A stretch of DNA of 36,141 nt from Streblomastix strix (lineage: Eukaryota), in the NCBI GenBank assembly GCA_008636045.1, contig SNRW01000043.1:1-36141 (forward strand), written 5' to 3'. Below are positions 3-33,200 of the stretch, in pieces; the first letter of the stretch is position 1, and each line of letters opens with the position of its first letter. Below the pieces are notes generated by a model. That model ran no database searches. It worked only from the letters and a program-made list of their open reading frames with translations, and was not told the DNA's origin. The translations under genes and the position numbers were made by a program.

Positions 3-128
3 CAAAGACTCAAAAATCTTGATAGATTTAAGGGATATAAACTGAGCAATTCAAACACAGGAATTGCACTTGTTGTTACTGATGTAGTTGCACGTGGAAT
101 TGACATTGAGAACGTTACTCATGTTGTA
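3..128 (+). CDS. DDX24: Inverted fragment of the DEAD-box helicase DDX24/MAK5 C-terminal RecA2 domain (5'-partial)
   Basis: Frame from nt 3 reads QRLKNLDRFKGYKLSNSNTGIALVVTDVVARGIDIENVTHVV: the DDX24/Mak5-type QRLKNL.RF segment plus motif V (TDVxARGxDI). Similarity stops abruptly at about 128. It lies on the opposite strand to the rest of the gene. Confidence 0.85.
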
Positions 129-1933
129 GCTGAAACAGTTGGTACAACTCTTTCCAATTATTAGTTACTTATTGAAGAAGATGATTTTGAAGATGAAAAC
201 TAATTAATCTGAATATTGGATAGGTTAACAATAACAGGTGCATCAGTGAATGGGAAGAAAGCAAGAATTTTAGGATCCAGACCAGGAGGAAGTTTGACTC
301 CATTAAAAATGCTAATTTCACCATCTGATATTTCACTTTCACTTTCATCATCGTCATCTGATTCACTTCCAACAGATGATTCATTTGTGTTCTATTTGAT
401 ATTTTTATGTTTTATATCTCTTTCACTATCAACATCACTTCTTGATTCTTCAGAATCCTTTTCACTATCAATATTTACATTACTAATATCTGTAGAATCG
501 TTATCAGAGTCATCTTCAGATCTTTTTCTCTTCTTCTTTTTCACAAAATCAATCATTTCATCATCATCTTCATCAATATTAATATTTACTTTTCCTTAAT
601 TTTTTTATTTTTTCTCCTTTTTTCTTTATTTCTATTTATTTTTCATTTCTTTTTATTTTTCCACTTTTTTCTTCTATATTTGCAATTCTTTCTCTTCTTG
701 CTATCTTCTTCTTTCAAACTTCTTTTCTCTTTATTTTTCTTTTGCTTCGCTTCTCTTTTGTCTTTTCTTGATACTATTCCGAACACGCAGCTCCTTTGGT
801 AGTGTCAATGTAGCAGAGAATAAGAAAGTCTGAAGGTGGAGATAATCTTAATATATAAAACATAAATTAATATGAATATAAATAGTTTGGATATATAACA
901 TACCAGATTTATTTGATTCTTATGAATTTATTATCTTTCCCTTTCTACTCCCATTATTTTGTTAATCTTCTGTTTTTCTTCTTAAAATTTCCTCTTTAAT
1001 TTTACCAACAATCAATCCGAGATGTTTAGTCATACCCTGTTATACCATTCTATCTGCTTCATCAACAGCAAAACAACACAAACCACTTAGATTACTTATA
1101 TGATCATAAGGATGCCATGGCTATTATTTATCAACAATTTTATTCTTGAAAGAAGGAATTTATGAATCTGGTTCAATTTTATTCTATGAAGTTCCCATAT
1201 CCATAGCTTCCCATACTCTTCCAGGAGTCCCTACAACAATCTCTGGTCTCTACTGAAGTAATCTTAATTGCTTTGCTTCTGCCATACCACCAACAAGAGC
1301 TACGATACCAATTTAATGCTATTCTTTGTTATTTTTGGGGTTTATTATATGGCTGATATGATCCTTGACTTGAAGGGCAAGTTCTCTGGTAGGAGTTAAT
1401 ATAAGTGCTCTTAAAGGTGAATTCTCTTCTTCAGTTTGCAAAATTTTCTTCTTCTTTTGTTTGATGGGTTTCATGGAAATAGGATCCAGCTCTTCAATGT
1501 CAAACAATCCAGGGAATTTAGAGATCATATCTGGGTCAAGTATTTCTGAATCATCATCATCATTTATATCAGAATTTGAATTTGATTCATTTTCACTAGA
1601 GTCTGATTCTTCACTTTCAAGATCATTAAGTCTTCGTCGTTTTCGAGAGTATTTGATTGTGTTATTATTTTGCTGCAAATTAAGCATTCGCTATACAATT
1701 GGTATTCCATAAGCAAGAGTCTTTCCAGAACCCTAAAAAATTGTATGTGAATATAAAGCAAAATAAATATTCTCTGGGCATACAGTTTCAGCAGCACCAA
1801 CTATGCTTTTCAGCCTCCCTCCTACGGCAGGAGGAATTGCTCTCTGTTAAATTTCTGTTGGATGGTCAAATTTAAGTCGTTCAAGAGCAGAAATAATGCG
1901 CTAATCAACGTTCAGAGCTTCCCACTCTTCCAT
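125..1933 (-). CDS. DDX24: DEAD-box RNA helicase DDX24/MAK5, N-terminal part (interrupted near nt 125-130)
   Basis: ATG 1933; introns 1783-1733 and 903-847 (GT-AG). Q motif PTEIQ with the invariant Q encoded by TAA (1849-1847), Walker A AETGSGKT, ILTPTRELALQV, GTPGR, DEADRM, QTFLFSATL. The acidic insert between motifs I and Ia is typical of DDX24. Confidence 0.88.
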
Positions 1934-2258
1934 TACCTAAAAATAAAAATTTAGAAGAAAATTGAGAGTTTTAAAAGGTATCATGTTTTATTTCATTGTA
2001 TTTTTATATGTAAAGTTGATAACAATATGAAATAATTATAAATATAAGTGAATTATTCCATATAAAATTGTAGGGGTGGCAAAACAAAGCCATTTTTATA
2101 TTTCTGATATTTCATTAGAAGGGAATTATTTAATTGTATTATAGTATAATTTTACAATGAATAATAAAAAGTGCAATTATTTTATTCTCAATTGAGTATT
2201 TTAAATGAATGATATGCTGAGCTGACTTCGTTTGAAATTTATTGATAGTTTTTTGCTG

Positions 2259-3850
2259 TCACTTGCCCCAGCTTTTTTGTGCTTTCTTTGAGACTGAAAG
2301 AGAGTAAATATGTAAAAAAATAACAAAAGAAATAATAATATACAAACTTTTTAAATCTGACGCTTTTGTGTTAACTTTAATCTGCCCAGATCCAGCAATT
2401 CCGAGCATACCAAAGCCCTTCCCACTCTCATAACTACTAAGTCCATCAGTCTCCTTCTCCGCTCCTCCAAACTGAATTCTATTCTACTACTTGCGCACCT
2501 CAGTCACAGCGTATTTCTCTTTTGTCTTCCTGTGTCTCTATCCCCCTCTTTTCTTCTTCCTCTGTGAAGGTGGGAGTGGAAGTGGTTTGACTAATTTAGG
2601 AGGTGGAGGCTCATTCATCTTTTCAATCTTCTTCATTATTTCTTCTTTTAACTCATTCCCATATATACCAGTTGTCATTTTCTTGCTGATGTCTACTCTT
2701 GCACACATTGCTACTCTGGAAAAATAATGATGATATTTATATATGAATCTAATATAATAAAGAAAGAAATCATTATAATACCTTCCAGACAGAATACGAG
2801 CAGTCTTGATACGCAGAGCTGCAGGAGAATCTTATACAAGTTGAGTACTATAAAGAAGAGCAGAATGCACCAAAGCTTCGCTCTTACCAATACTTCTTGT
2901 ATCATTACCATGAGTTGCTCCAAGTAGTAATATATTACATGCAGGCATCTGTGACATTTTATCAAGGCCCCCACATAGGGTTATAAGCTTTGCTGCAACT
3001 GCTGCTCCAACCATGCTTGTTACATTTGGAGCTATCACAGGCATTAGACTCTCAATATAATACAATAATTACTATTTCTTCTGCCCTAGGTTGATAATAG
3101 CATCACATCCATTAAGGATCCGAGTTAATTCAGTCTTATCAAATACTCTAATATGTGGACATATTGATGCAGCGATCTTTACACCCATTTCCTCACTTTT
3201 AGACAAACAAGGAGGAAGATTAACTTTAGTCATGTCTTCGCAATCTCCAAATCCTGAGACTAAAAGTGCATAATGAATTGGATTCTTAATTATTTACTTA
3301 AGATCTAAAAACTTCTTTGCATATGCTGCAGAGACTGTTTCATGTACTTGTATGATCTCGTCGTCAATTTCTGACTCAAGTTTCACAATTCTTAATTTTG
3401 ATATATATTAAAAAATAAATAAGATTAGTTTGAAGAAGAATAATAATAATATTAAATATCCAAACTTGTCTGGTTCACTTGGTGTCTGGAATTATCTAAA
3501 TATATCAGCCAACTTATCTTCTTATTCGCCATCAAGAAGCGAAAGAGCTACAAACATCCCAATGTGGTTGGAATATTCCAGATCACTCACACAACAAGCA
3601 ACAAGTCCATCATTCTTGGATGCTATGTGAAATGAAACTTTGATATCTTAGTCTTCAATTGATTTCATTTAACCAAGCTGGATTCCTTTGACTTTTTTCT
3701 TAATTGCTTTTTAAATGGTAAATAAAATTTTGAAACTATGAAGAAAAATATTAAACCTTCTTCCGCTGTTTAATCAACTCTGTATTTCTAAATAATTGTA
3801 ACCTCACCTCCAGGTATAATCCTACAGAGTGCAAGGCAGACGAGTGTCAT
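2259..3850 (-). CDS. PRPF31: Chimeric protein: N-terminal Ykt6-like longin domain fused to U4/U6 snRNP protein PRP31 (about 448 aa)
   Basis: Exons 3850-3757, 3706-3466, 3390-2782, 2715-2348, 2293-2259 splice in frame (1347 nt). PRP31 motifs: IAPNVTSMVGAAVAAKLITLCGGL..MPACNILLLG, RVAMCARVD, EPPPPKLVKPLPLP..RKKKRGG, TEVRKQQNRIQFG. The first ~130 aa resemble Ykt6. An alternative last donor (2343) would end the CDS at 2188. Confidence 0.85.
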
Positions 3851-3922
3851 AAGTGTATTATTTGTATATTATCTATAAAATAAATAAATTAAAAGTTAAT
3901 GAATAAAAATGGAAACATGAAT

Positions 3923-4183
3923 TTATGGTTGATCATGTAGGAATAAACAAACCAGAAGTTCTCGTTTAGTAAGATTAATCCAGAGCTTCAATGTTTCATG
4001 ACTAACAAATGTCATTTTGAAATGAGTTTGAAGGATGTTTTTATTCCTTAAACCATTGAAATTTGTAGTTGAGATTATGGGGAAATAAAGGTTTCGTTTG
4101 TATTTGTTGATTTTAGCAGATAAAATGGTTAAATTTAAGTTAATTAATATAATTTTATTAAATTTATATGAATAATTATTCAT
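3923..4183 (-). repeat. 261-bp direct duplicate of the TAF2 proximal promoter, exon 1 and start of intron 1 (source 14379-14639)
   Basis: Ungapped alignment at offset 10456 with 14 mismatches (about 95% identity). The TAF2 exon 1 copy at 4015-3953 is identical. Confidence 0.95.
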
Positions 4184-4613: not shown

Positions 4614-6274
4614 TCAGGTCTGTGAATACCAGACAAGGCTGTCTGACAACAGCATTTTTCGCTCTTGTTCTTCATCCTCGTTAAGACGGCCTGCACTAGA
4701 ACCCAATCTAGGATATTCAAATGTCTAATCACTGTCAATAATCGAATCTTCAGGAACGTCATCTATCGTTGCATACTCTCGATGTCCATGCCGGAGAAAG
4801 AGAGAGGCAAAAGTAGCCAAACCAGAAACTATACCTAATGCGCAGAAGTCCCATTGAAGCTAATATCTTCCTTTTATCTATTCGCCATCGTGAATATTAA
4901 TATTGATTATAGAGCATGTAATCTGTGATAATGATTGTCCTAGCAAACAGAAGCAGTTCATAACTCCTGCAAAGTAACTATTTTCTGTGTTGTATGTGCT
5001 TTCATTGACTATTGCAAAAGGTACTGAATTGAACATAGTGAAACTGAATCCCATTATAACATAGCATACAAACATCAACCATATAAATTTAGATGACATT
5101 GGTGTAACTGCAAACAGAGCAAACATTGATAATGTAGCAAATAACTGAGATATGAAATAAGTCATTTTTACTCCACAGCACTGCATGAATGACATCGAAA
5201 TAAGAGAAAAAACTGAAATAAGAAAAGACATAGCAAGCATAGCCAATGATCCATACATTATACCTTTTGAGTAATCATCCTTATCAGCTATCTACAATGA
5301 ATAGTCTTATATATCTGAAATGACTTATTCTTTCTTCCAATGAAAGATTGCTTGAATTGAAAAAAGAGTAGCACTTGTATTGAAGAAGAAGAATACCCAC
5401 CAACTAAGTGTGAATACAATAGCAACTCTTAATATTGGACCTCCACTCTTAATCTTCTTCAATACCAATCCAGTTGTTCTAAATGGATTCTCAATTTTTT
5501 CACCTTCAGCTCTTCTGTATTAATCTTCATGCACGAACAGAAGAGTAGGAAGAGTCACTACTATGATTGATCCAATTGCATAATAATATGGTTGTGGAGT
5601 CAATGCAGCAACTATGAATGAAAATATATTACCTACTCCAACACAAACAGCGATTAATGAGTTTCCTAAAAGCTCTTATCCATCTCCAGCAATATCAAAC
5701 ACTATGGCACGAGCTGGAAGCATAAGAATATTAATTGCGATGTTGATTAAACAGAATGCAACAACTGCAAGGACAATTTATTCTGTTCTGTTCTGAATAA
5801 AAGCTATTTGACTATCACCTTTGTGTGGGTTGGTTTGGTGATCAAAAGAGTAAAGTTATGGAATTTTGATTCAATATCAATGGAAATAATAATAAATAAT
5901 TTTTGTAAATAAATTGTATATGAATATAAAAACAAATGAAGCAAACGATTTTCACAGATAGTCAGAAAAATAGAAAAAGAAATGAGTAAAAAAATATTTC
6001 CCACGATAATAAATGGGCGGCGTCTTCCCATTTTAAAATTAGCTCTGTCACAATGCGCACCTATAACAGGCTAAATAAGACCTAACAAAGGAGCTAAAAT
6101 CCATATCAGCTATATTACCCAATTGCTCACTTTCAGGTTTGCCATAAGTGGTGTAAACAGTGAGAATTAGAATCCATACGCAATTTAAACAGATGTATAA
6201 GACATGCAGGCACAAAAAAGCCGTATTGGATGAACTTTTGGTTTGCGAAGGTAAAAGATTGGCTAACTCTTCAT
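4614..6274 (-). CDS. MFS sugar transporter, SUT/SLC45 (GPH sucrose/H+ symporter-like) family
   Basis: ATG 6274; reads SVQIAYGFQFSLFTP..IWILAPLLGLIQPVIGAHCD..GRRRPFI with the conserved Q residues encoded by TAA/TAG, then NILMLPARAIVFD and FNSVPFAIV. Many TM segments. One intron about 5946-5819. Ends at TGA 4616-4614. Confidence 0.88.
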
Positions 6275-6462
6275 CAATATCTAAAAATGACAATAAGATA
6301 AAGAAATTTAAAAAATATAATATTGAAAAAGAAATAAATAGAAAGATTAAAAGAGTGCCAATAATCCTTGAAGAAAGTAACAAAATGAATTAAATTGATC
6401 ATAGCTTGTCCAACTCATAAAATTTACTTCTCGTAATTTGTAAAGAAGATAAATAAATGAGA

Positions 6463-6944: not shown

Positions 6945-9900
6945 TCATTATTGCATGTTCATATCCACATCTTTACCATCTTCCATAACAGGATGATGAT
7001 CAGATTCTTTTTCCAATGATGTTTATGAGTGGCTTATTAACAGCGAATGAGTAGGAACTGCTTTATGTATTTTGAATTTTATAGGCTATCCTCCTTAATC
7101 AGAGATTGGAGTAGAAGATTTAGAATTCTTTGCATTTGGTTTCATGTTTCCACGAAATTCATCTCCTCCAACACTTGATCGTCTTATCGTATTATCTACA
7201 TTCTATAATATTGGAGATGGAAGTGGATTTGTCATTACTGAGCGATAAGGTATTTCCAAAGCCATATTTTCTCGTTTCATCTCTGGTGTCAGAATATTCT
7301 TCCCAATTTCCTCTTCTTTCAAAGCCAGTTATGGAGTAGATGTTCGATAAGGAGTCTCAGATCGTGTCCCAAACTTCCTCCCTCTTCTAATTTTCAGTGT
7401 TCCATCCTCTTTTTGACTGCAAAGAAACTTCTATGATTCTGAGGCTGGTATTTAAGCAACTGATAAGTTTGGATCATCAATAAAACATGGTGGAACTTCC
7501 TTTCCAAATAAAGCTCTATATAATCTGGCTCCACCTTCACGTACACGAAGATCAAAGGTACTCCTTGAATCTCTGGTAATGAATGTCCAAAGAGATGTTA
7601 GAAACTTCTGGGTTGCATCAATTGCTGTGATTGGAGGAACATTTACTATTTTTTATGTTTTATTCTTTTCATTAACAATTTATATTGATGTTGGAAGTGA
7701 AGAAGAAGAAGAGGATTAAGATTAAGAAGACTGTGGTTTTAATCTGAATTAAAATTCTAATTTTAATCCATCTGATTTCTCCAACTCATCTGGAATTGCT
7801 CGAATCGCTTCACCAAATTGCATTCTCTCTCTTTTATCCAAAATGACATTTCCATCAGGAGAGAAAAAAATTCGGATAGTGCGACCGTCTTATGATGTTT
7901 ATTTGGATTAATTTTGACTCCCTTCATCAAATGCTTCACTATTAACATCTTTTTCCATCTGTTTAATTTGTTTCTTCTCATCTTATTGATTATTATTCAA
8001 TATTTTCACCTTCTACTCTTCATCTTTCATCATTTTTGATTAATTTTTGAATTTTTCACTTCCAGGAGTAGAAACACGAAGAAGAGGAACAACTCCACAA
8101 GAAGCTCTTCGATATTCAACAGACATTCCAATGATCTCAATTTATTGATTAGATTAAGATGATGAAGAAGAAGAAGATGATGATGATGATGAAGATTAAG
8201 ATTATTGTTATGATAAAGTTGAAGCTTATTGAGTAGTATTTGTTTGATTTTTGGTTGTAACTGTTTGATTTTGAGTAGTAATAGGTTATTGTAATTGCAA
8301 TGTTTAGCTGTTCTAAAAGAATTACTAACCTTGCTATATACTATTACCTATTGGTGGGTGTGGCAAATAGTTTGGTAATTATTAACCAAGTGCACTTAAT
8401 GGGCGAAATTATCCACTCTGTTATTAATTCAATTGTTATTAAGATAAAGATTGTATCGAATAATTAGTATTACTAGAAGACGGTTAATATTTTGGAATTA
8501 TCATTCTATCAAACCCTTAATTTCCAACTCCTATTTATCCAAATGATGAATTCTAGTAATATGGAGAAGGGTTTTAAATACCTCTTAATCCTAATATATC
8601 AAATTAATTTAGTTGATATGGACGTATATATTATTGTTATGGTTATTAATTAGGTACATTTGAAGGTGAATATGAAGAAGGAGGCAATGATGAAATAATA
8701 AATGGTGATGGACCTGATATGAGCATAATATTTGGATTGATCATGAACTAATTTGAAGGAGAATTAGATGGTGTAGTAGTTTATTATAAAGATTAATTGT
8801 TAGTGTTACTATTTTATTAGTTAGTTTATGTATTAGGTTGTCTTTATAAGTTGACCTTATTGGGTTAATTCTATTAAGCTCCAGCATTCATTGTGTCTCT
8901 ATTTAAATTTTTGTTCTAATCAGTGAAGTTTGGAAGATGCTCTTTCTGTAACTGTTCCTAAATGGCACGTTAGCCTCGTGCATCCAATTCCTCATTCTTC
9001 CGTCTCTCATAATTGATTTGAGTTCTCTTCAATATTTTAATAAGAGCAGTTATTGGAGCAAAGACTTTAGCTCGCATCTATGGATCAGGATCAGATGATG
9101 CAAGATATATAGCATAATTTAATATAGGGAATAGTGGAGGAGTCATTGAAAGAAGTATTTTCTCAAATTCAAGTCGATCTTAGTCAGCTTAAGATAGTTA
9201 TATAATTGAAGTGGAAGATTATTCTGGAATTGATGAAGTGGATGAAGAAGATTATTAGGAAGTTTATAAATAGTCAGTTTATTCAGTATTTTATGATTAT
9301 TGATTCTGTTTTTCATTTGTTTCACTCTAAAATTCAAAAATATTTCCATCTTCAATCTTCACCAAATTAACAAAAGTTTATTAATCCTGTGAAGATGAAG
9401 AAGAAGAAGAAGATTAATTAGCAGAAATAAGTCTCTAAGGAGGAAGTGGAGTATTATTTTATCCACTCAATTATATCTAATAAGGAAATGGAGAAGGTGA
9501 ATAAGGTACTGGAGGAGACATCATTGAGAAAGATGGGGGTGATTATAATGCAGATGGAGAAGGATATGGAATAATTGTTGATTCTTCTTCTTATTTGACA
9601 TTTGACATAAATATGCTCTCTTTAACATTTTTGTCTCCTTCGTTGTTATTCTCATTAAAATCTTTCACATATTTCGGTTTATGCAAAAGTGTTTCAATTC
9701 CTGGATTCCTTACAAGCTCCAATAAACTCACTAAACATTGAAATGTGGTCAATCGAACAGAAATTGGAAAATCTTTTCTCAAATAATAAGTAAAAAATTC
9801 AGGTTTTACAATTCCTTCATTCGACAACACAATCTTGCAGAGAGCGCGAAGACACGCCCTCAAAGTGATATTGTTAGTTTAAAACTATAAAATGTATTAA

Positions 9901-12900
9901 TAAATAGAATATTTACAAAGATATTCAATTATAACAATACCTGGGTAACTCTCTATGAGAGAGAAAGGGACATCTTCTCCAGACTCAAATGCCTCTCAAT
10001 AACTTTCTTCATTCTATCAAGGAGGTTTGGTTTTAATTAAAGTTTAGGGAAGTAATAAGACAGAGAAGTTGGTGATGAAGAAATAGATGATGGACCTTGT
10101 GCTGCAACATGAACATTCCCAAGACATTGGAGTAAAAGAGCTATATAGACAGCATCAGTATATTTGTTACCTTAGTTCTCGTTCTCCTGAAGACACATGT
10201 AAATCAATTCTGCAATTTCTGGAGGCGTGTTTCCATCAGCGCCTTTTACAAGAGAGAGGTTCCATATCACAGCTTTGATTACATGATACAAAGAGATGTC
10301 ACTGAAGTCGTTAGGTTTAATCTACATAATAATGTAATGAACATTTAATAATAAATAAAATTAATAATAAATGACAAAATTAAGATCTTTTTATTAAATT
10401 CATTTTATATTTTCTCTTTATTTATACTTCATATAGTCTAGAATCAAAGACATAAGACTCAAAGAAGTGCATTAAACAAATTACACCTTGATGAGCTTGA
10501 AGTTTTTAATTGGATTATGAATGAATGTTTGGAGCTGAATTCGAAGCAATTCCAGGTTAACTTATTGAATTGCCATAACTCTAAATTTAAGTCTATTAAT
10601 CTTCTTATCCAAGAGTAACATTAGGCTGTGAAACCAATGCTATTCTCGTTTGTCTGGATTGGCTCGTCTCAAGAACCATATCAACCATCGCACCCACAGC
10701 TTCTGCTCTGATTAAATGATGGAATTTGTGGTCTTTATCCTATAAGCAATCTTCCAGAATTGGGTAGTATGTTTGATCATCATATTTTCTGAAGCCACGA
10801 ATTGCAATGATTTTTCCTACAGGGTCAGGATCGTGGTATAATTGATGCATTAGTTGGCTCATATACTGTTTCAAATCAATTTTGCAGATCAGTTCCAAAA
10901 AAGGATCAATACGAATGAATAAATTTGCAGAATCGTTTCTAAACAAATTAATCAACAAGAGCCGATCATATGTTGATATACCATCATCTTGGTTCTGTGT
11001 TTAAGATGCTGATTTCCCATCAAGAATCACAGATGCATTATCAGTCTTCCTGTGAGGAGATCGTTACTTTCGCATTTTTATAGTATTAGAAAGCTCGATC
11101 TATGTTCTAAAATCCCCAATTTCTATTTTATGCAGATTAAATTTTTCTAATTCGCTAAAAAGAACTGTTATATTCCCTCTAAACATTCTGGTCTAAATAT
11201 TGTTATAATTGTCATTAATGTCTCCTTCAACGCCAATTAATCCACCTTTTCCTCCACTTCCTCCTGCAATTCCCCACATTCCTCCTTTTTTCCGGCTCGT
11301 TTTTGAATTTGTTTCTCCATCAGAATTTCTAACAGTAGTTTATGATCTCACATTAAATTAACCTCGTACTTGTTGCAAAACATCAATTGTTGTGATGTTC
11401 TTCTAAGGAATATACTAAGCTCCACACTATAAGTTTGGTATACTTGTTGAATATACATATTATTTAATAAATAAATCGATGTCATAAGAATTGTTAATTT
11501 TTTTAAAATAATCAATAAATTCTTCAACAGGAAGAGTTAAATAATTCGGAGAGCATAAAGTCCGAAAAATTCGAGGATCAGTTGCAGACATCAATTCATC
11601 ATCACTCATAGGACGAAATTAAACAGAAATTTAAGGACTGCTTTCAATTAGATCTCCATGATTGTAATTATCAGTAGAAGGAGTAATATTATTACCAATT
11701 GAGTTTTCTTTCTCTAATTAATTATTAGAAGAAAGTTATATGTGGTTCTTGGATGAAGTTTAAGATGATGATTATTCTTACAATACTAATGGAGTGTTAC
11801 TACGATCTCGACTATTTGAATTTAGCATATGCTTGAAAGAATAAGAGGAATTTCCTTACAATAAAAAGAACCCTCTCATAAATTCAACATTCCCTCTATT
11901 TTCTTCAAAGAGACTGCGATAAACAAACATACCACTATTAATGAAGTCTCTAGCTTTTCTAACTGAATTACGAAGATGTCTTTAAAAGTTGATTTCGCCC
12001 ATTCTTCGAGCAATACAACCAACAACGGCTCTACTTTTCACCTTTCCAAACTTTGTACGTAATGCGATACGTTATGCTTCAGCTGATATATTCCACCTTG
12101 CACCACTATCAGTAGCGCAAAGTGGAGATGTATCTAAGTTAGTATTTTGGATTACATATTCCATTTCGTAGAATATTCGAATCCTTGCTTCAGTTGCTTC
12201 CATTGCATATTATCGCACTTTCTCTTCTGCATCATTTCTATATCTAATTGTAGCATTATTACCAGTTTCATCAGAAATAAGAATATTCTCTGAGTCTTGA
12301 TGATGTGGACAATGTTCAGCTTCCATAGCTTTAAATGCAAGATACCCTGCAACTCCTTATAAAAACCACATGTCACTCCATTTAAGCGGTGATATGATAT
12401 GTCCAAAATAAGTTTAAATAGCAGCAAGTGCCAAGCAGAAGTGTGACTACCACACAAGTTCATCATCAATTATATTATCTCCAAGTAATACTGCCTCTTC
12501 AGAAAAAATAGACAACGAAGCGGATGTTGTTACTTTCCTAACTGGGCTTGGAATGAAAACTTGTTTGTATGTAATGAATGGAGGAATTGAAGGATATGGA
12601 TTTGTTGGTTGGTTATGCATTATTGGTGAAACAATCTACAGAAGTGACGGGGAATTTGATTTCAATGTTTTATTTGGGAGAGAAGATGATATTTGAGATG
12701 ATTGGATGGATTATGTTGTGGGAGATTATCTGATCTGCGATTAAAATGATGAGTCTTGTGAAGGCGAGGGAGATCTTTGAATTGGTGTTGAAATACCAGA
12801 TTGAACAGTTTATTAGATAATAAAAGATGATTTCTACTCACTCTCTTTCCATTGCTTCAAAAACTGCTTTGCCATCATTGGTTACGATTCAATTAAATTC

Positions 12901-14471
12901 AATGCTTCTTTTGTCTCAGAATTAATTGTTACCAGTGAAAGAAACTTGGCAATAGGAATATTGAATGGAAGAGGTTTAGGAGCAACATTTGATTTCTAAC
13001 CTCTAATATTTGGAGTAACTGACAAAGTCTAAGGTGTATTTGATCTTTCTCTTTACCCATTAAATGATGGAGTAGTTGGTTATTGCGGATGTGGATGAAT
13101 AATACCTGTTAAAGAAGGTGAACGTGACAAATTAGGAGATATTTTCCCACCTTCTTTCAATCCAACGCGTCCACTGGAGTTTTGAGGTGATTGAGGAACT
13201 GAAGTGTTTGAAGATTATTGGGATTTAATTACTGGTTTAGATCCTTGATTTGATGTGGTGTTTTCTTGTAGGCGAGTTGCAAGATATTTTCCATAGAAAG
13301 CCATAATCTTTCTCGAAAACTCGGCTGCATTTTTCAAATTTGCCCGTTTCCGTTCATTTATCTACTGACCATCTCCACTCATCATTCCTCCAGAATTTTG
13401 CCTCTATTCATCAGATCCCAAATTAGTTCGCTCTTCGCCACCTGATTTTAATAAGGGTAAAAAGAAATGCCAAACATTTGCAGGATGAATCGGATCAACT
13501 TCCAACTAAAATGGACCGACAGCTAAGGCGATTGAAGAAGCACCAACTGGATATGAAATTTCATGAATAAAAGTCACTAGTTTCTATCCAGTTTCACTCA
13601 ACATAGTTTCATTTTCCATGATTTGTGGTTAATATCCACTTCCATGGTCTAATCGAGGTCTGCATTCACCAGAGCAAATAACAATATTGTCACTCGTGGT
13701 TGTAACTTCAATTCGCCATGTGCATCGTACTTCCAAATCATCCATACAAGGCATCCAAACTCTTGCAGGTGTAATACAAGAATCAACACTCACATATGCA
13801 TGTGGTGGAATGCCAATCTAATCGCTTCTAATTTATCCTGATCCATCTTTCTTCTTTTAAATTCCAGTCCTTTCTCCTCCAAAGTATAATCCAGCAATTG
13901 GATCTTTAAGTCAATACCAAATCTACACAAATAGAGCTGGTAGAGTGCTAAATTCTTCTGATCCAGTAGCTCTCATACTTTATCTCTTTATTCTAACTTC
14001 ATTAGGAACAATTATTGTTAATTCTCCTTTATCTCCTTCTTTTACATAATTACTATAGAAAGAGTCATATGATGCCATATCACGAACTACAGTATCTTCT
14101 GGAAATAACACTCCCAATGGATCATTATGTTGAAAAGTTGCAATAACTCCATCAATCATTATTTTGTCAACAACTAAAATTATTTGTTAGAATAAAAACA
14201 AAAATTAATGTTTCTTATCTAAAAAACGTATCATACCTAATTGTCTAGCATTCAAGTGTATTTAAGTAGCACTACGATCACGCATATGAACATCAAGTTC
14301 TGCAATACCCTGATTTATAAAAATTTACAATTCGAATTTAAGAAAACATAAATAATGATTGAATTTGTAAATGTCAAATTATGATTGATCATGAAGAAAA
14401 AAACAAACCAGAAGTTCTCGTTTAGTAAGATTAATCCAGAGCTTCAATGTTTCATGACTAACAAATGTCAT
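6945..14471 (-). CDS. TAF2: TFIID subunit 2 (M1 aminopeptidase-like fold), about 2400 aa, with one internal in-frame TGA
   Basis: Exons 14471-14409, 14309-14237, 14173-10428, 10321-9941, 9884-6945 (7203 nt, in frame). Motifs: IHLNARQL, ARVWMPCMD..CTWRIEV, ALAVGPF, YFGHIISPLKWSDMWFLQG, FIRIDP, IKPNDFSD, ITLRACLRAL, LWTFI..LRVREG..LYRALFG. In-frame TGA at 13913-13911. Confidence 0.92.
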
Positions 14472-14868
14472 TTTGAAATGAGTTTGAAGGATGTTTTTAT
14501 TCCTTAAACCATTGAAATTTGCAGTTGAGATTATGGGGAAATAAAGGTTTCGTTTGTATTTGTTGATTTTAGCAGATAAAATGGCCAAATTCAAGCCAAC
14601 TAATATAATTTTATTAAATTTATATGAATACGGATTCATGTAGCTGTATAATAAGAATGTTAAGAAAAACTTAACTTTTCTTAAGTTGGAGAAGGCATCG
14701 GTAGAAATAGATAACTTTATTTTTATTTTTTTATTTTTCCGAAACTAAATTCATAACAATATTGAACTAATCAACCGTATTATTGACTAAAACAGTGCTT
14801 TTGCATTTTTCATAATTTTTCTATTTTTTTTCAATAAATTTCACCATCTAATCTTAGATATATTATAA
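14472..14868. promoter_or_regulatory. Putative bidirectional promoter between head-to-head TAF2 and PGM2
   Basis: 397-bp AT-rich gap between divergent ATGs; inferred from gene orientation only. Confidence 0.55.
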
Positions 14869-16686
14869 ATGGACTCAGCAGCTGTAAAATTGCTAGTTGA
14901 TGAATGGCTCTCTTTTGACACCGACCCAGAAACACGAACTGAGATACAGAAACTTTGGGATGCAGGAGATGTTAATGAGCTTTAAAAAATCCTTGGTCAT
15001 CGTATTGCTTTTGGCACAGCAGGGTTGAGGGGGCCAATGCGTGCTGGATATGCTTGCATGAACAATTTAATTGTTAAACAAACATCCCAGGGTATATGCG
15101 CATATATATTGAAAGTATTTCCAGATGTAAAAGAGAAAGGTGTAGTTATTGGATTTGATGCCCGATATCACAGTCACACCTTTGCACGCATTGCTGCCTC
15201 TGTGTTCATCCACAAAAAGATACCTGTCTACCTCTTTCCAAGTATTTGTGCAACTCCACATGTCCCATTCACAGTGAGGAAGTAAGATGCATGTGCAGGG
15301 ATTATGGTAACAGCATCTCATAATCCTAAGTAAGACAATGGATATAAGGTCTATTGGAGGAATAGTGCATAGATCATACCTCCAATTGATGCGAATATTC
15401 ATGAGTCAATTCTTCAGAACTTGAAACCATGGGAATGTTAAGAGAATGATGTTGATTCATCACCTCTAATTATTGATGCTGGAAAAATATGTTGGGATGA
15501 TTATCGTGAAAAGATCGTTGCTGTTCTTTCAAAGAAAAGGAGATTTGGAACATCAATACCACCATTCCCAATAGTCTACACTGCAATGCATGGAGTTGGA
15601 TATCGTTTTGTTAAAGAAGCATTTTCTGCATTTGGATTATCTGATCTAATACCTGTAGAAGAATAAGTTGAACCAGATCCAGAATTCCCAACAGCACCAT
15701 TCCCAAATCCTGAAGAGAAAGGCACTTTAAACTTAGCAATGAAAAAAGCAGACAAAATTGGAATCCCAATAATTGCAGCTACAGATCCAGATTCTGACAG
15801 ATTCACTTTTGCTGAATACAATAAAGAGAAGAAACAATGGAGATAATTTACAGGAGACGAGATTGGAACTATTTTTGCATATAGACAATTAACAGACTGG
15901 AAAGAAGAGCATCCAGGTGGTGATGTTTCTAAGATTGCAATTGTGAACAGTGCAGTTTCTTCTCAGTTTATTAATGTAATGGGCGCTGCAGAAGGATTTT
16001 AGACAGCATAAACATTAACTGGGTTTAAATGGATTGGGAATAAAATGTTGGATTATGAAGCTTCTGGAGTATAAGCAGTGATGGGATATGAAGAAGCGAT
16101 AGGATATTGTTTGGGAAGTGGAATAATAGTTGATAAAGATGGAATAAGTGCAGCTTCTGTACTTGGGGAACTGGCAGCAATTCTTTATTCACAAAATAAG
16201 ACTCTTGAGAAATATTTGAACGATATCTATGCTCGATATGGAACTACTGTATCAAACAACTCGTATCTCTACTGCTACAGTCCTCCAACAATTACAAAGA
16301 TTTTCGACAGGATTCGTGCATCAGGAAAAGGTAAAGACGGTGGACAACCAGATACTTATATTCGCTTCTTCACAAACACAGCCACTGGTGAGAAATGGGA
16401 AGTCAAACACGTTAGAGATCTTCACACAGGATATGACAGTAGCACATCAGATAAGCGCGCATTACTCCCTTCATCTTCAAGCTCAGAGATGCTTACATAC
16501 TATTTCACCAATGGTGCTGTTCTAACCATTCGCACATCAGGCACAGAACCAAAAGTCAAATACTACTCAGAATTAACAGGAAAGGATGGCGCAGAATGTC
16601 GTCGTGAACTGCAGGCATTGGTAAAGGCTGTTGTCGAAGAATGCCTCCAACCAGAAATCAATGGGTTAAAACCTCCTCTTGGATGA
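14869..16686 (+). CDS. PGM2: Phosphoglucomutase/phosphopentomutase, PGM2 family (605 aa, no CDS intron)
   Basis: FGTAGLRG, catalytic TASHNPK(TAA=Q)DNGYKVYW, NSA(TAG=Q)IIPP, metal loop DPDSDR, TLTGFKW, GYEEAIGY, IRTSGTEPKVKYY. TGA falls at the expected family C-terminus. Confidence 0.96.
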
Positions 16687-16835: not shown

Positions 16836-19800
16836 TCAAATCGGACTAGGAACTTAATCATCTTTAGCTACTTCTTTATCAATTACCATTTTTTTGGCCT
16901 CTTTAAGGAAATGGAAAAACGTTCTTATGTTTTGTTGATAGTGCACCAGACCAAAAACAATGAATGAAGTAATTTCCAAGATTGTACCTGGTTGAACTTG
17001 ATCCAAAATTGAATCTTGAGTTTATTCACTTTCTTACACATTTGCTTTTTTGATTATGTTATCCATCCAAGTAAAAAGTCTCTAAATAAGCTATTCAAAA
17101 GGATTTACTTCTTGATCCTCTTCCACATCTTAGGATTGTTCAACTTTTGACATTTAATCTTTTTATTTGTCTACAACGCTAAAATTTTCTGCCTTTTGTT
17201 GTTGTTGATGTTAATTAATCAGTTCATCAAAATCAAGATTATCAATGGTTGTTTTTAATCTCATAAAATTAAGAGTGGTTAAATAATTAGAGTTATTGCG
17301 TTCAGAAGTAATTTTCTAAATTTTGCGCTATTTTTTTTCAAAGAAAAGTGATTCAGGAGAATTAAAGGAATTGTTGGAAGATATAATTGTATTAATAGCA
17401 ATATTAGGATGAGCGATAAGTGCTAATATTCGAGAGATTATAGTTTAAGCTTGACTCAATGTTATTTCTCTTTTTTCTAAATCTTATGACTAGCTCTATT
17501 TTGTATTTTCTTTTTCTTTAATAACTTAAGAAGAACTAGAATTACTTATGCCATGTTTATTTGAAGGATCTTTTGTAGGTGAAAGTAATTTTCTTTCTTA
17601 AGGAGGAGATAAAATTGCCAATAAAGATGAGCTATTTGATGTTACTTTTGGATGAATAAGCTAATTTCCAAGCTCTGATTCGCTCTTAATAGTTTTTGAT
17701 GGGGATAATATTTATTATTTCTTGTAGTTTATATTTATGCCAATAATATGAGGAAGAATAGCATCTAAGAGTTTAGCAGCATAAATGCGTAGTTAATCTT
17801 CAGAGTTACTGAAGTCAACCAATAAAAGAGGGAAACTTGAATAAACAACTTATTCTTCTGGGGTGAAATGCTGAATAGGGAAACTGTTATGAAGAACCAT
17901 TTGCTGAAGATGAAAATATGATTTAAGGAATGTTATAAGGTTGGCTGAATTTGTCCGAGATTCTCGATTTTTCTTCTTTTGTTGTTTTAGTTATTTGGTA
18001 TTAGATGAATATGGCTTATTCTTACGATCAGATACATTCCCTGATTCAGTTTATTATTTATTTTCTTTTTCTACAATTAATGTTGGAGACGTTGTTAGTT
18101 GAGTATCAATTTGAAGTGATACAGGTTGTATTGAAGACTAAGAAAGCGGAATTGCTATAGGTTATGAAAGCGGAATTGCTATAGGTTATGAAAGTGGAAT
18201 AGCTACTGACTAGGAAGGAGGTTATACAATGGATTAAGAAAGTGGTTATAAAATAGATTGAGATTATGGTTATATAATAGATTGAGATTATGTTTATACA
18301 ATGGATTGAGATTATGGTTATATAATAGATTGAGATTATGGTTATATAATAGATTGAGATTATGGTTATTCAGTGATTAAAGAGAGTGGTTGTTCAGTAG
18401 ATTAAGAAAGTGGTTATGAAAGTTATTGAGATGGAGGCTAATTTATTGGAAGTTATGAACCATTTGATTGCAGTTGAGTGAATGTTTGAGGAATATTTTA
18501 GGTCTAAATATTATTCTTATGTTTCTGTTTATATGGTGAGTTTATTTGATATTTGTTTGGAGAAAGGTATTTCTCTTTTTCCTCAATAAGATTATCAGTA
18601 TCTTTTTCCATTGCTGATTTATTTCTATTTCTTTTCTTGACTGTTTTATTTTCATCCTTGTCATCAATAATATCACACATCCCAGCCATATACAATTATC
18701 CTCTGGCCCACATAGCTGCATCTTTAGCAGCAATCTTCTCTCGTGCATTTATCAACATTTCTGCTTTTTATTAGGCCATTTATTCCTTATAAAGAATCGT
18801 TTAAGCGTTTTTGTCGTCTAACAACCTCTAATAGTGAAGAATTCTTGCTTACAAACTCAGTCTTTCATTCATATCAACTTAATGTTCAATCTCATTTATA
18901 GCCATTGTATCTGTAATGATCTATGTCTATATCTAAGATGAAGTTGCTGCAGCTGCTCTTGCAATCTGTTCATTTACATCCAATAATCGAATCTATTCCT
19001 TCATTTCAAGTGTTTTATTCTCTAATTCTTTCTCTCTTATTTATCTTTCTTTCTCTCTTTCTTATATTTCCATTAATCTTTCTTCTCTTTCTTTATCTCT
19101 TTCTTCTTTGAATAATATTTGTTCTTTATTTCTCTCATCTTCACCTTTGTTAATAATATCATTCAATAACTGCATCTATTTCACTTATTATTCTCTCCAT
19201 TCTTTCTGTTATTCATCTTCTCTTTATAATCTCTACTTCTATTCATTCAATAATTACTCTATTTCTTCTCTCCTTTGTTTCATCATCATTATTTCATTCT
19301 CTCTTTAAAGTTATTTTTCTTATTCTTTTATCTTTCCTTTCTCAATAAGTGTTTATTTGCTCTTCTCAATCTCTTCTTATCTCGTTTTTTCAATCTGAAA
19401 CAACCTTTCTGTAATTCTGTCCATACATCGAACTCTCTCCAATTCATAATCATTGTTTATTTCTTTTGTCTTTTAATTTTAATTATTTTCATTGATTTCC
19501 TTTTCTTTGTCTTTATCCATCAATCTTTCTTTCAAATTGTTTATTTCTTATTCGTTCCTCTATTTTTCAATCTCAATTTCTTTCCATTTCATCTTCTGTC
19601 TTTCCAATTCTATTTCTAATTGATGCATTTTCTCTCTTTATTAATCTCTTTCTTTTTCTCTTTCTTTATCCCTTTATTTCATAGCTTCTATTTCTCTGAT
19701 ATATTCAGTGTTGTCTCTTTAGTTTTCTGGAGATACTTATATTCTCCTTCTCTTCCTGTTTCCATCAATGTCTTATTCTTATTCTGTTTCATCATCAATT

Positions 19801-28398: not shown

Positions 28399-29296
28399 TC
28401 AATGATGAGTATCAGAGTTGGATAAGAATGGAATGGGTAATGAAACAGAAGCAGTGATTTTTTATTCAACTTCTGCAGCTAACTGTTACAATCTATCTCT
28501 GGCCTTTGCAATTTCTACTTATGCCAGATGAATATCCTGCAAATTAAAAAATCAATAATATAAATTTTACAAAGAAATTATAGACAAACTGGTGGTAATT
28601 ATTGATACAAATATAATTCTTTTGATTGTGCTTTTAATTCACTCAACATCTTATTTATTTCAAAAAAAAAAAATGAAAATAAAAATTAATAAATGAATTT
28701 TTACAAACAATTTTTAGCTTTTCTTTATCATCTACTATAGTCTTGTGAGCTATTTTACTATTCTCTCCTGTGTATCCTCGTTGAGCAAGTTTTTATTACA
28801 TCTCATTAATTTCTTAATCAATTTTTTCACTCTTCTGCATATTATCCCATGCTATTTATTCCATTCTACTTGTTTCTTATTCCATTAATGTTGCTGCACC
28901 TTGAAGATTTTCATTAATTCTGTTTAAAACGAAATAAGCAACTGAATTAAATATTCAAAAGTTGTTTAACAAACATTTCTAAATTAGACATTTTCTATTC
29001 AGCGAGTTTTCTAGATTCGTCAATGAGCAATTTTCTTTCGCTTAGTGTTGAAAAAGTCATTTCGCGATTAAAAAATGCATTTTAATGATGAGCTAATGCA
29101 ATGTTAATACTGAAATATCAAAAAATGTTAATTGAGATGATAAATTTAAAACAAACTCAGTCATTGATGGAGTTTCAATATCCAGTAAGACTGCTATATC
29201 GGTTAAAGCATTAATATAATTCAGTAAATCAGGTGATAAATTTGATTCTGATATTCCAAGCTAATCCAGTGCAGAAGTTAGTGTTTATTATTGCAT
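28399..29296 (-). CDS. HAUS1: Augmin/HAUS complex subunit 1 (about 227 aa; N-terminus may be incomplete)
   Basis: Exons 29296-29157, 29109-28975, 28919-28709, 28649-28590, 28536-28399 (684 nt). Motifs LDQLGISESNLS..YINALTDIAVLLDI, LAQRGY..IAHKTIV and YQQLPPDIHLAQVEIAKAR match the HAUS1/AUG1 pattern (Y.DLPP...LA...I). Confidence 0.8.
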
Positions 29297-30251
29297 TTAA
29301 AGTTTCTACTTGATAAAATAATATGGAAATTAAAAAACTGTTTATAATACAAAATTTGATTTCATGCATATTTCAGAAAAGTTATCAAAAAACATAATTA
29401 ATGTAGTATTATAGTCGGAACGCAGTTTTTAAATTTTCCTTTATATTTGAAGATTTATATATTATTATAGATTAACTTTATTAAAATAATATTAAAATTA
29501 TTTTTATACATAGATTTAATCAATTTAAATATTATTTTGTTAATAAAAAAGAGCACAAAAAGCGCTTTAAGTAAATATGAAATAAAATGTAATAAATAGA
29601 TAAATGACAAATTAAAAATATTTAAAAATAGTGCAAAATTGATTTTTATAAAATACTGAATAAAAATATAAATAATTTGTATAATAAATAAATAAAGTCA
29701 AAAAAATTTGGACAAAATTTTTAAGCTTGGAATTATTTTTAATCAAACAGATTTGAAAAATAATAATCTAAAAATACACAAAAATATATTTTAAGTGTTT
29801 ATATTATATTTTGTTTTATTATTTTAGTTTATTTTGGAGTTTTATTTTTTGTGATTTATTTTACATTTATTTGAATATTCAATATTTAAATTTAATTATT
29901 TTAGTTAAAATGTTCCTTAATTTATTATAAATAATTTAATTTTTATTTGTAACTTTATTTATATATTCATACTTTCGATATTTTCTTTTTTTTTTACTGT
30001 TTTATTTTTGTAATTTCTTGTTCTAAAAACTTAATTTATTTATTTATTAACTATATTTTTTAACTATTTGCTTAATATATCTAGTTTATTCTCTTGAACA
30101 ATTAAAATATTAAGTGAAGATGATTTAGAAGAGAGAAAAAGAATGAATAAATGAAAAAAAATACATAATAATTCTTTAATTATTTATTTTTATTTATTTT
30201 ATTCCCAACTCATTTATTATTTATGATTTTCTTTCCATATTAAGAGAGAAA

Positions 30252-33200
30252 ATGGAAACAAATGAGCCAGATGTGAAGAGATGTGGAAGAGACTAACAAT
30301 TATTCGCTATGAATTTGATGATGGAGCTTTCAAGTGATAGCATGGTCAGATTGAAAACTGAGTTTTAATCACGTGAAATACAAATGGCTGATGTATATAT
30401 TTCATTTCCATTTATTATTTTATTTTATCTACAATTATATTTTCATATTTTCTAGTTTATTATGCTGATGGAAGAGTATTTGCCAAATATGTACTTTGAC
30501 GAGAACTGTATTCGCAATCTTGTTAATTTATTTGAAGAAATAGATGTCAATGGAGATGGAGGAATGGAATGGGACGAATTTACATAGTTCATTATTGAGT
30601 CTGCATTTACTGTACAATCTGGAAACTGTGGTCAAAAGATTGTATATTTATTAATACTATTTTGGATAATATCGCTGTTAATTTCATTATTTTATTATTT
30701 CATTTTATTTCTTCAAGTATAATTTTATAGCTGATGTATAGATGACTGATAGAATATCATTTATGTCTTACTCACCAATTACACGTAGATTGTACTGTGC
30801 GGAAGAACATACAAATAATGTGATTATTATAAATCCTACTGTTTGCTCTTAAAAATAATAAATTACATTCTTCTATTATTAATTTTATTGTTATCCAATT
30901 ATAGAATGGGACACATATATCAACAATCACTGGTCATACAGGCACTGTAACCAGTTGTGTTTATATTCCATAATGGAGAGTACTTGCAACAGCCTCACTT
31001 GATTAGACTATTGCACTTTGGGACGAAGATTCTGGATTTTGTATCTGCTTCCAAACATCAGCTCTTGAAAAGGTTTATTTTATATTAAATTATATTTATC
31101 CTTATTTAATTAATTATACTTACAGGAAGATCCGCATGTTCAAATGGTCTTATATTGGGATTAAAATCATGAAATGTTGTTTTCTGGTGGAATTAATGGG
31201 AGAATAAATATATTCACAATTACAAACAATGAAAAATGGAAAGTGTGTATTTACTATATTTATGTTATTCATTTAATATAAAATATAAATCTTTTTTTAT
31301 TCTGTTCCAAAGATTGTAAATAGTGGTATTCTGCCTGAAGATAAAGTGCTTTTGAAAAAGAGACTTGATGTTCTAAGATCAGTTCAAATGTCTCAAACTC
31401 TAACTAAAAGAACATTGAATTAGTCAATGGAGAAATTAGAAAATATTGGAAATAAGAATAAGGAAGAAGATAAAGAAAAAGAAGAACAGGATCCTGATGA
31501 TGATGAATTGAGCTCATGATTTGATGGTGTTGATGGAAATCTAACAAACAAAAGTGGGAATTTAACTGAAAAATAATCATAATCATAATTGGATGTAACA
31601 ATGAACCTTCCTGATGAACAGTTGGAATAGAAATATAAGAAGATTGAATATATGTTCAGACTCTCACTTCCAGGTGTTGTATCTAAGACTATTGTAGATA
31701 AAAGAAAGAAAAGAGATTATTAATTATAGAAAGAAGAAGAAGCTAAACAACCAAAGAAGACCAGGAACCTTAAAATAGTAATGAATAACATTGAAGAATA
31801 AGTGAGAAGAGAAGAAAGAGCATTAACTCCACAGTAACCACCAATAAGTCCGTTTTAATTATCAAATTAATTCCCAACTCTTGATTTTACTGAAAGAGGC
31901 AGAATTCTGAGACAATCAGGGAAGATTAATAATGATAAACAATAATAAGTTGATGCAAGGAGTAATGAACTGTCTTTACAGCAACTATAAAGAAGAGCAT
32001 CGAAACTATCTTAACTCTGGACATCTGTTTAAGGACACTTTGATTTAATCACAGCAATTGTAGACATACCAGGAACGACTCATTTAATTGCTTCTTCATC
32101 AAATGATGGTAATATTCTGGTTTGGGATGTTAAAAGGAAGATGGTCAGAACTCAGCTGAAGAAACATACAAATGCAGTTACATCATTATTATGGCATAAT
32201 ACTGGTAAAGTTCTTATTAGTGGAGGTTTGGTTATAATATTCAAACGAAGAAAATAAGAAAATTATTCAACTATATATTATTATTTGTATTGTAATTTAG
32301 GATCTGATAGTCGAATAGTCGTCTGGAATCCACTTCTTTCTCGGAACCAATACTCATTTCAACTCACTTCACACAAAGGAATTATTAATTCACTCAATGA
32401 GATTCCAAATACGATGCAATTTTTGTCAATGAGTCGCGATGGAGTAATCAAAATGTGGGATCTAAGAAATGGTATCGTGATTTAAATACTTTCGTTAGAC
32501 ATGTTTTCTGGGTTGAATGTGCCACTTCCAAATTAAGTAAATTATGCACAAGGAAGTGATTAGAATAATGAAACAGCTGCACAGAAACCAAAAGCTGGAG
32601 GAAGGAAATAGTTTATTTCAAAATAGATGATGATAGCTTTGGGATTAAAAGAGTATTCATCATCTATTGTATGTGATAACATGTCATGTAGAATGATAGT
32701 TGCATCACATAGACTTCACTATTTTGATTATTTTGTACCTGTAAAGAAATCTGGACTGATGAATGAAGGACCAAATGACAATGAAGAAGATAATGCATCT
32801 AATGAAGAAGATAAGGAAAAAGAAAAAGTATTTATCAATATAGATAGATTTGTTATTCATTCATTCTAATATATTATTTTTAATTAAATTTATTTTCATT
32901 GTATTTTAAAGGAGATATAAGAAAGAAAGTTGGATAGAGAGAAGAGAAGAAAAGAATTATAAGCTCGTTTATGCAAAAGTGGAGTCATTTAATATGACTT
33001 TTAATATAAAGATGAGAAACCTGATAAGAAATCAGATGAAGTTTAACAAAAAGACGGATTTCCCTTACCTGGGACATATGTAGGCAGTAATCGCTTAAAA
33101 GCGAAAGAAGAATATAGATTGAATATATCCAGAAGGGGGAGAATGAAATATCCAAATTCAACAATGAGATTGGATCTAAACACACATGGACTTGGGAGAA

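Follow-up and report, generated by a model that had tools for sequence, protein, structure and literature searches.

We describe a gene on the minus strand of a 36,141-nucleotide stretch of DNA from Streblomastix strix, hereafter referred to as the window, in which the longin part of a Ykt6-type SNARE is fused in frame to the spliceosomal protein PRP31. The fusion is confirmed as real in DNA. PRP31 is a U4/U6.U5 tri-snRNP protein that binds U4 snRNA together with Snu13. It is a conserved core splicing factor, and the fusion indicates that its front end is replaceable by SNARE-derived sequence. In the reading that we consider probable, the front half of Ykt6 was joined to PRP31 in frame at the DNA level, and the gene would encode a working PRP31 carrying a decaying longin passenger.

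Lineage-specific chimeric genes arise by exon shuffling or ectopic recombination: the 5' portion of a donor gene is linked in frame to a second gene, and the donated portion evolves fast thereafter. Judged by its sequence, the fusion belongs to this class and concerns a core splicing factor. It differs from known chimeric genes in the position of the breakpoint, which is internal to an exon and at a motif common to two unrelated helices, and in that the recipient is a core spliceosome gene. It would be an unusually clean case of chimeric-gene formation, with a break within an exon, a three-residue likeness of unrelated helices and donor introns that were apparently kept. No description of a Ykt6-PRP31 fusion was found in the literature searched, which comprised listings and abstract openings with few subscription papers.

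Gene model and coding setting

Across the window, the long frames with Pfam matches are open under NCBI translation table 6, in which TAA and TAG encode glutamine, as they do in Streblomastix. The sequencing runs that contain the stretch carry the label termite gut metagenome. The fusion reading on the minus strand exists solely under table 6. The gene model, which was deduced from the DNA with the exons joined by script, comprises the following features:

3850, minus strand: start codon (ATG) of the fusion gene in the table 6 reading
3757..3850, minus strand: exon 1 (residues 1-31), carrying the ATG and the opening strands of the Ykt6-type longin, shortened compared with Ykt6
3707..3756, minus strand: intron 1, 50 nt, GT-AG, phase 1, 16% GC
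3466..3706, minus strand: exon 2, Ykt6-type longin core, residues 32-112
3391..3465, minus strand: intron 2, 75 nt, GT-AG, phase 2, 13% GC
2782..3390, minus strand: exon 3 as a whole, with SNARE-helix turns, the crossover and then PRP31
3372..3390, minus strand: opening of exon 3 (residues 113-118), with the initial turns of the SNARE helix of Ykt6
3360..3371, minus strand: crossover, E-I-D-D, residues 119-122
2782..3359, minus strand: remainder of exon 3, PRP31 coiled coil and Nop domain
2716..2781, minus strand: intron 3, 66 nt, GT-AG, 17% GC, frame preserved
2348..2715, minus strand: exon 4, Prp31_C preceded by the last part of the Nop domain
2259..2347, minus strand: probable intron 4 (2347-2294) and a short last exon to TGA, 3' end uncertain

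The predicted fusion protein has about 448 residues, with an uncertain 3' end; the intron 4 chosen is the best among the donor and acceptor pairs tried, by a margin of just 0.2 bits. In every 3' model tried, the terminus of the protein is PRP31 sequence and there is no cysteine lipidation tail. The PRP31 profile spans the intron 3 join gap-free. Introns 1-3 have a GC content of 13-17% and the exons of 34-40%, and third-position GC is 0.30 in the Ykt6 half and the PRP31 half alike. Introns 1 and 2 are phase-compatible, as the first-pass annotation had stated. For intron 1, four acceptors were tried with donor 3756; acceptors 3736 and 3699 were rejected because of an early stop, and the frame is kept with 3707 and 3692 only. 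Acceptor 3707 agrees with the register of the Ykt6-like sequences P0046 and P0047, and acceptor 3692 stands as an in-frame alternative to it.

The two halves of the protein and their crossover

A check against Pfam domains, proposed with the first-pass annotation, had a divided outcome: Nop and Prp31_C score above their cut-offs, whereas Longin, which is the sole family match on exon 2, reaches 14.2 bits (E 0.043) and stays under its cut-off of 26.2. A phmmer search with the segment 3297-3704 against 1.84 billion representative proteins gave six matches at E ≤0.001, the best at 2e-14. All six are Ykt6-like, and Pfam Longin is under its cut-off in all of them too. One of these, KAK2952043.1 from the oxymonad Blattamonas and the sole match with a named source, has 187 residues and a two-cysteine terminus, and in two of the six a Synaptobrevin domain continues the longin part. 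The Blattamonas protein, P0045, ends straight in two cysteines, whereas rat Ykt6 has a tail of the CCAIM type, and it escapes Pfam Longin at E 1. A profile made from the six matches and one cluster member, with the query left out, found five sequences in the PDB, all of them Ykt6 (best E 1.7e-8). The oxymonad-type Ykt6 profile aligns to residues 19-130 of the spliced model with 75 bits, which is not an independent figure since the rows of the profile were found with this query, and its highest score on the 38 PRP31 proteins described below is 5.6 bits. The expectation of a longin match over residues 1-130 is borne out for this segment, but exon 1 alone is weakly Ykt6-like, its score being reached by 33 of 5000 shuffles against P0042 and by 2318 of 5000 against P0045. 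Single-sequence PDB searches gave nothing relevant.

The model of exon 2 that was built with the Ykt6-like matches in the alignment (pLDDT 79) has longin-type strands and helices. In a Foldseek comparison, Ykt6 occupies ranks 1-3 and 5 for this model, with E of 0.037-0.12 and an rmsd of about 2 over 54-55 columns; by VIA, its best Z is 5.0, a value shared with unrelated folds. An alignment-free model (pLDDT 55) had no longin among its structural matches. The sequence comparisons support a Ykt6 origin of the front ~120 residues of the fusion, and the structural ones are weaker evidence.

Compared with Ykt6 (Blattamonas KAK2952043.1; PDB 3kyq, 3bw6), the longin core of the fusion is 31-47% identical to the oxymonad-type matches, and the fusion shares the start of the SNARE helix and apparently both intron positions, whereas it lacks the C-terminal cysteines and the greater part of the SNARE motif. 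This agrees with the initial description, in which the SNARE motif was said to be cut short and the lipidation tail to be missing, as the likeness to Ykt6 stops at residue 122 and the terminus is that of PRP31. Pfam gave no Synaptobrevin match on the fusion protein, and no further Ykt6 piece beyond residue 122 was found in the window. According to excerpts of PMC4974504, the membrane work of Ykt6 requires the SNARE core and the C-terminal lipidated cysteines. Both are absent, and a SNARE role is therefore unlikely for the fusion.

Both introns of the Ykt6 part can be compared with the relatives through protein text. At the intron 2 site, all five matches that look unspliced (P0041-44 and P0046) turn into Phe/Ile/Leu-rich text directly after the D-K at which exon 2 of the fusion also stops; in P0041 the SNARE helix resumes after about 20 intron-like residues, and the annotated Blattamonas protein passes directly from D-K to the SNARE helix. 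At the intron 1 site, two of the three unspliced sequences that reach it, P0046 and P0047, open with text that looks intronic and stops at the acceptor 3707 column, and the third, P0042, reads through; the introns of the relatives are deduced from protein text and not from DNA. We infer that intron 2 was inherited from Ykt6 and, since it is apparently Ykt6's own, that it is not the junction. Because introns 1 and 2 are both at apparent Ykt6 intron sites, the Ykt6 piece was likely copied as DNA.

In the PRP31 half, Pfam Nop (PF01798) matches with 162.5 bits against a cut-off of 25.4 (E 1.4e-47), and Prp31_C (PF09785), which was used to tell PRP31 from Nop56/58, with 85.8 bits against a cut-off of 25.2 (E 5.7e-24). 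The first protein search gave 38 PRP31-family matches, the best of which is 38% identical. Nop is present in all 38 and Prp31_C as well in 36, and no precomputed domain besides these two was found in the 38 relatives retrieved. This search scored 7999 candidates, 276-881 residues long, and returned no oxymonad PRP31 among them. A profile of the 38 matches hits residues 113-435 of the spliced model with 351 bits. The acidic N-terminal start motif is common but not universal in PRP31; a profile of this motif, carried by 22 of the 38 matches, scored positively neither in the model nor in any of the six frames of the window, in line with the earlier claim that the acidic N-terminus had been replaced. 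The reading frame lacks an ATG from Met82 up to Met165, and an intact Nop domain is therefore always preceded by Ykt6 sequence.

Compared with PRP31 (PRPF31), the fusion has both domains, with Nop complete from profile position 3, whereas about 100 native N-terminal residues, including the acidic start, are swapped for Ykt6 sequence, and the C-terminal tail seems shorter, subject to the uncertain 3' end. By both of its domains, the predicted protein is classed as a PRP31 with a non-standard start, and not as a Ykt6. In human PRP31 the ordered part begins near residue 52 and the coiled coil rotates in spliceosome assembly, as given in an extract of PMC11208138; the fused longin would therefore lie on a mobile part of the protein. 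The same succession as in the fusion, of a globular N-terminal domain, a coiled coil and then a Nop domain, is described in excerpts of PMC11213020 for Nop5/Nop56/Nop58 and for the IS110 recombinases. Their N-terminal domain is RuvC-like and ancestral, whereas that of the fusion would be an unrelated longin, added secondarily to PRP31.

The crossover between the halves was located in an ungapped register, scored with two Ykt6 sequences and 31 of the 38 PRP31 sequences. Residues 97-122 favour Ykt6 over PRP31, and the cumulative Ykt6-minus-PRP31 score is maximal at residue 122 (position 3360), where the Ykt6 likeness ends. From residue 123, PRP31-type diagnostics follow (E123, I124, H128, Y135 and F139), and the Pfam Nop match begins at the crossover, at profile position 3. 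The E-I-D motif (residues 119-122, positions 3371-3360) is common in both families at the same column, and the switch does fall, as first proposed, where Ykt6 and PRP31 resemble each other. A profile-profile comparison of Ykt6 and PRP31 gave no homology, so the shared motif is a chance likeness. In the aligned sequences, the join keeps the frame and the register of either parent.

The junction in sequencing data and at its locus

The Logan contig X1-1, from run X1 (depth 10.4), covers positions 1000-3974 and has no joint at the junction. Together with the homology of both halves and the intron positions, this contig sustains the central claim of the first-pass annotation, a Ykt6-type longin fused in frame to PRP31. 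Compared with the window, X1-1 has seven differences in 2975 nt, all of which are within 142 nt (3297-3438), on both sides of the crossover. Four are silent, one changes Ala to Thr and two are in intron 2; the excess of silent changes has a P of 0.008 against a silent share of 0.21, with transition bias ignored. A single allelic site of X1-1, position 3387, is in Ykt6-derived coding sequence, and it is silent. In the PRP31 part, allelic changes are silent in 3 of 4 cases in X1 and in 2 of 2 in run X2, the latter at depth 2. The clustering of the seven differences probably reflects one bubble that was resolved differently, and a local conversion tract could also account for it.

A contig from run X3 carries the letters of the window at 3192-3383; it passes the crossover by less than 31 nt and was not counted as bridging. 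From the variant in X1-1 and the window-type letters in X3, it follows that both allelic states exist. The variant sites 3387 and 3342, each within 31 nt of the crossover, suggest that both alleles carry it. Runs X1 and X3 are one sample, which may be the window's own source. Run X2, from a second study, has near-identical 151-nt pieces of the locus, none of them over the junction, and run X4 gave no matching contig. In run X1, no second contig was listed at 80% likeness over exon 2 or over the PRP31 part of exon 3, at a flat depth of 10.4, where contigs show presence and not absence.

Directly upstream of the fusion and on the same strand, there is an MFS transporter gene (~4614-6400, minus strand). 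In excerpts of PMC10703272, separate PRP31 and Ykt6 genes are listed, without their N-terminal sequences, for Monocercomonoides, Blattamonas, Paratrimastix and Trimastix; for Streblomastix strix, Ykt6 is listed together with a model, Streblo_st517, which has PRP31 as its best match and is hand-annotated as a GPH-family MFS symporter. This model probably represents two adjoining genes that were merged, in the same neighbourhood as the fusion locus, and a longin between the MFS part and PRP31 would be hidden in it. Given the MFS neighbour and the double annotation of Streblo_st517, the fusion is therefore probably at the resident PRP31 locus.

The search for stand-alone genes and for the fusion in relatives, also suggested at the first pass, thus found the separate genes listed in other oxymonads, while neither profile detected a second PRP31 or Ykt6 copy in the window and no second fusion was found. 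In the comparison of exon 2 with longer proteins, none of 20 candidates matched at E 10; there was no match among 473 candidates for the Nop region, and none was confirmed in a metagenome scan of 228 stretches, each of these being a weak negative. A second metagenome scan, of 386 stretches, gave a single locus (L001), which was rejected as a chance match recognised by neither profile, and is likewise a weak negative.

A segment of about 250 nt just upstream of the fusion ATG (3930-4180) is duplicated at 14386-14636, upstream of a TAF2-like gene, in the same orientation and with 238 of 251 positions identical. The copies, which are 10.5 kb apart, look non-coding, and the X1 contigs break there. 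The duplicate has no Rfam match, and its fold z is -1.1 on the minus strand and -2.2 on the plus strand. It may be a shared promoter region or a small mobile element.

Constraint on the longin part and competing explanations

Before the conserved M/I-K/R-S, the fusion has 44 residues compared with 61-62 in two full-length relatives, with 17-18 residues missing. The Ykt6-like matches are 48-68% identical among themselves, one identical pair aside. When the fusion is compared with its nearest match, P0041, using five outgroups in turn, 16-19 changes are unique to the fusion and 1-2 to P0041; these tests are not independent, and P0047 was dropped as it is identical to P0044. The fusion keeps 14 and changes 9 of the 23 columns that are invariant in the six others, and keeps 18 of 45 variable columns. 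As a sequence pattern, this fits relaxed or shifted constraint. The fast change of the longin could be a lineage-wide rate, the PRP31 part itself being 38% identical to its best match. Most likely, the longin is a tolerated passenger on a working PRP31 and not a SNARE; with 14 of 23 invariant columns kept and a pLDDT of 79 for the exon 2 model, it may still be under selection for a role.

In the mechanism that we propose, a genomic copy of Ykt6, introns included, would have recombined with the resident PRP31 gene at the short shared stretch; by an alternative route, the Ykt6 copy would have been inserted upstream and then joined by deletion. The Ykt6 part would now provide the start codon, and the first SNARE-helix turns would replace the front of the first coiled-coil helix of PRP31, with the whole Nop domain retained. 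The fusion protein is predicted to bind U4 snRNA with Snu13 in the U4/U6.U5 tri-snRNP, as PRP31 does.

A passenger is not the sole reading of the fast change. Adaptation would explain it as well as decay does if the longin had been co-opted and had diverged quickly after the fusion to a new job, such as docking of a tri-snRNP partner, packing on the PRP31 coiled coil or localisation of PRP31. Consistent with this, the reading frame and the two introns are retained, as are 14 of the 23 invariant columns; the exon 2 model has longin-type strands and helices, and Nop5/56/58 have a globular domain at the same position, which was lost in Prp31 (excerpts of PMC11213020). However, the frame and the introns would be kept anyway because they are upstream of PRP31, about 18 residues are gone and others that are conserved have changed; the searches gave no conserved fusion elsewhere, and nothing points to a partner. 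We regard co-option as unlikely, although it is the strongest of the rivals. Equally doubtful is a broader proposal, in which the only PRP31 of an oxymonad lineage would use a captured SNARE regulatory domain with a new spliceosome job, and a globular N-terminal domain would have been regained at the position of the Nop5 ancestor through a helix-for-helix swap at a shared motif. If the longin is needed, a trafficking domain would have been reused in the spliceosome; if it is not, the gene would be a passenger fusion that is well documented and might serve as a lineage marker.

The remaining explanations are less probable still. The fusion could be a spare or silent duplicate, with an ordinary PRP31 doing the work elsewhere in the genome, and the recent duplication of the upstream 250 nt indicates that the locus was rearranged; but the PRP31 part is intact (351 bits), its allelic changes are mostly silent in X1 and, at depth 2, in X2, and the MFS neighbour points to the resident locus, which makes a spare copy improbable. 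An amplification chimera or a misassembly of normal Ykt6 and normal PRP31 genes would agree with the fact that all junction-spanning data come from one sample (X1 and X3), while X2 has no piece over the junction. Such an artefact is very improbable, as one contig of depth 10.4 crosses the junction unjointed with two allelic states flanking it, no more than 31 nt away on either side, frame and register are preserved across the join for both parents, and the decay seen in the Ykt6 half sets it apart from a normal Ykt6. Finally, a Longin score under the Pfam cut-off, together with single-sequence PDB searches and an alignment-free model that gave no longin, could be taken to mean that the front part belongs natively to PRP31, as an N-terminus that has diverged and is like Ykt6 only by coincidence. 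This explanation is largely refuted and retains a negligible probability: the best match, at an E of 2e-14 out of 1.84 billion proteins, has a Synaptobrevin domain after the longin part, the intron positions are shared with Ykt6, and the PRP31 profile aligns from residue 113 only. An in-frame fusion that encodes a working PRP31 with a decaying longin passenger thus is the reading we prefer.

Elsewhere in the window, a 24-nt tandem repeat (18172-18483) encodes an 8-residue Gln/Pro/Ser-rich repeat in a long minus-strand frame without a Pfam match. A match to a C/D-box snoRNA family (29080-29126, plus strand) has an Rfam score of 24 bits and an E of 0.42, below gathering, and is probably due to chance; near it there is a weak HAUS1 match (near 29060-29300, minus strand). 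The other genes identified by Pfam are a DEAD-box helicase (119-2030, minus strand), the TAF2-like gene (6945-14300, minus strand), a phosphoglucomutase (14870-16686, plus strand) and a protein with EF-hand and WD40 domains (30147-33526, plus strand).
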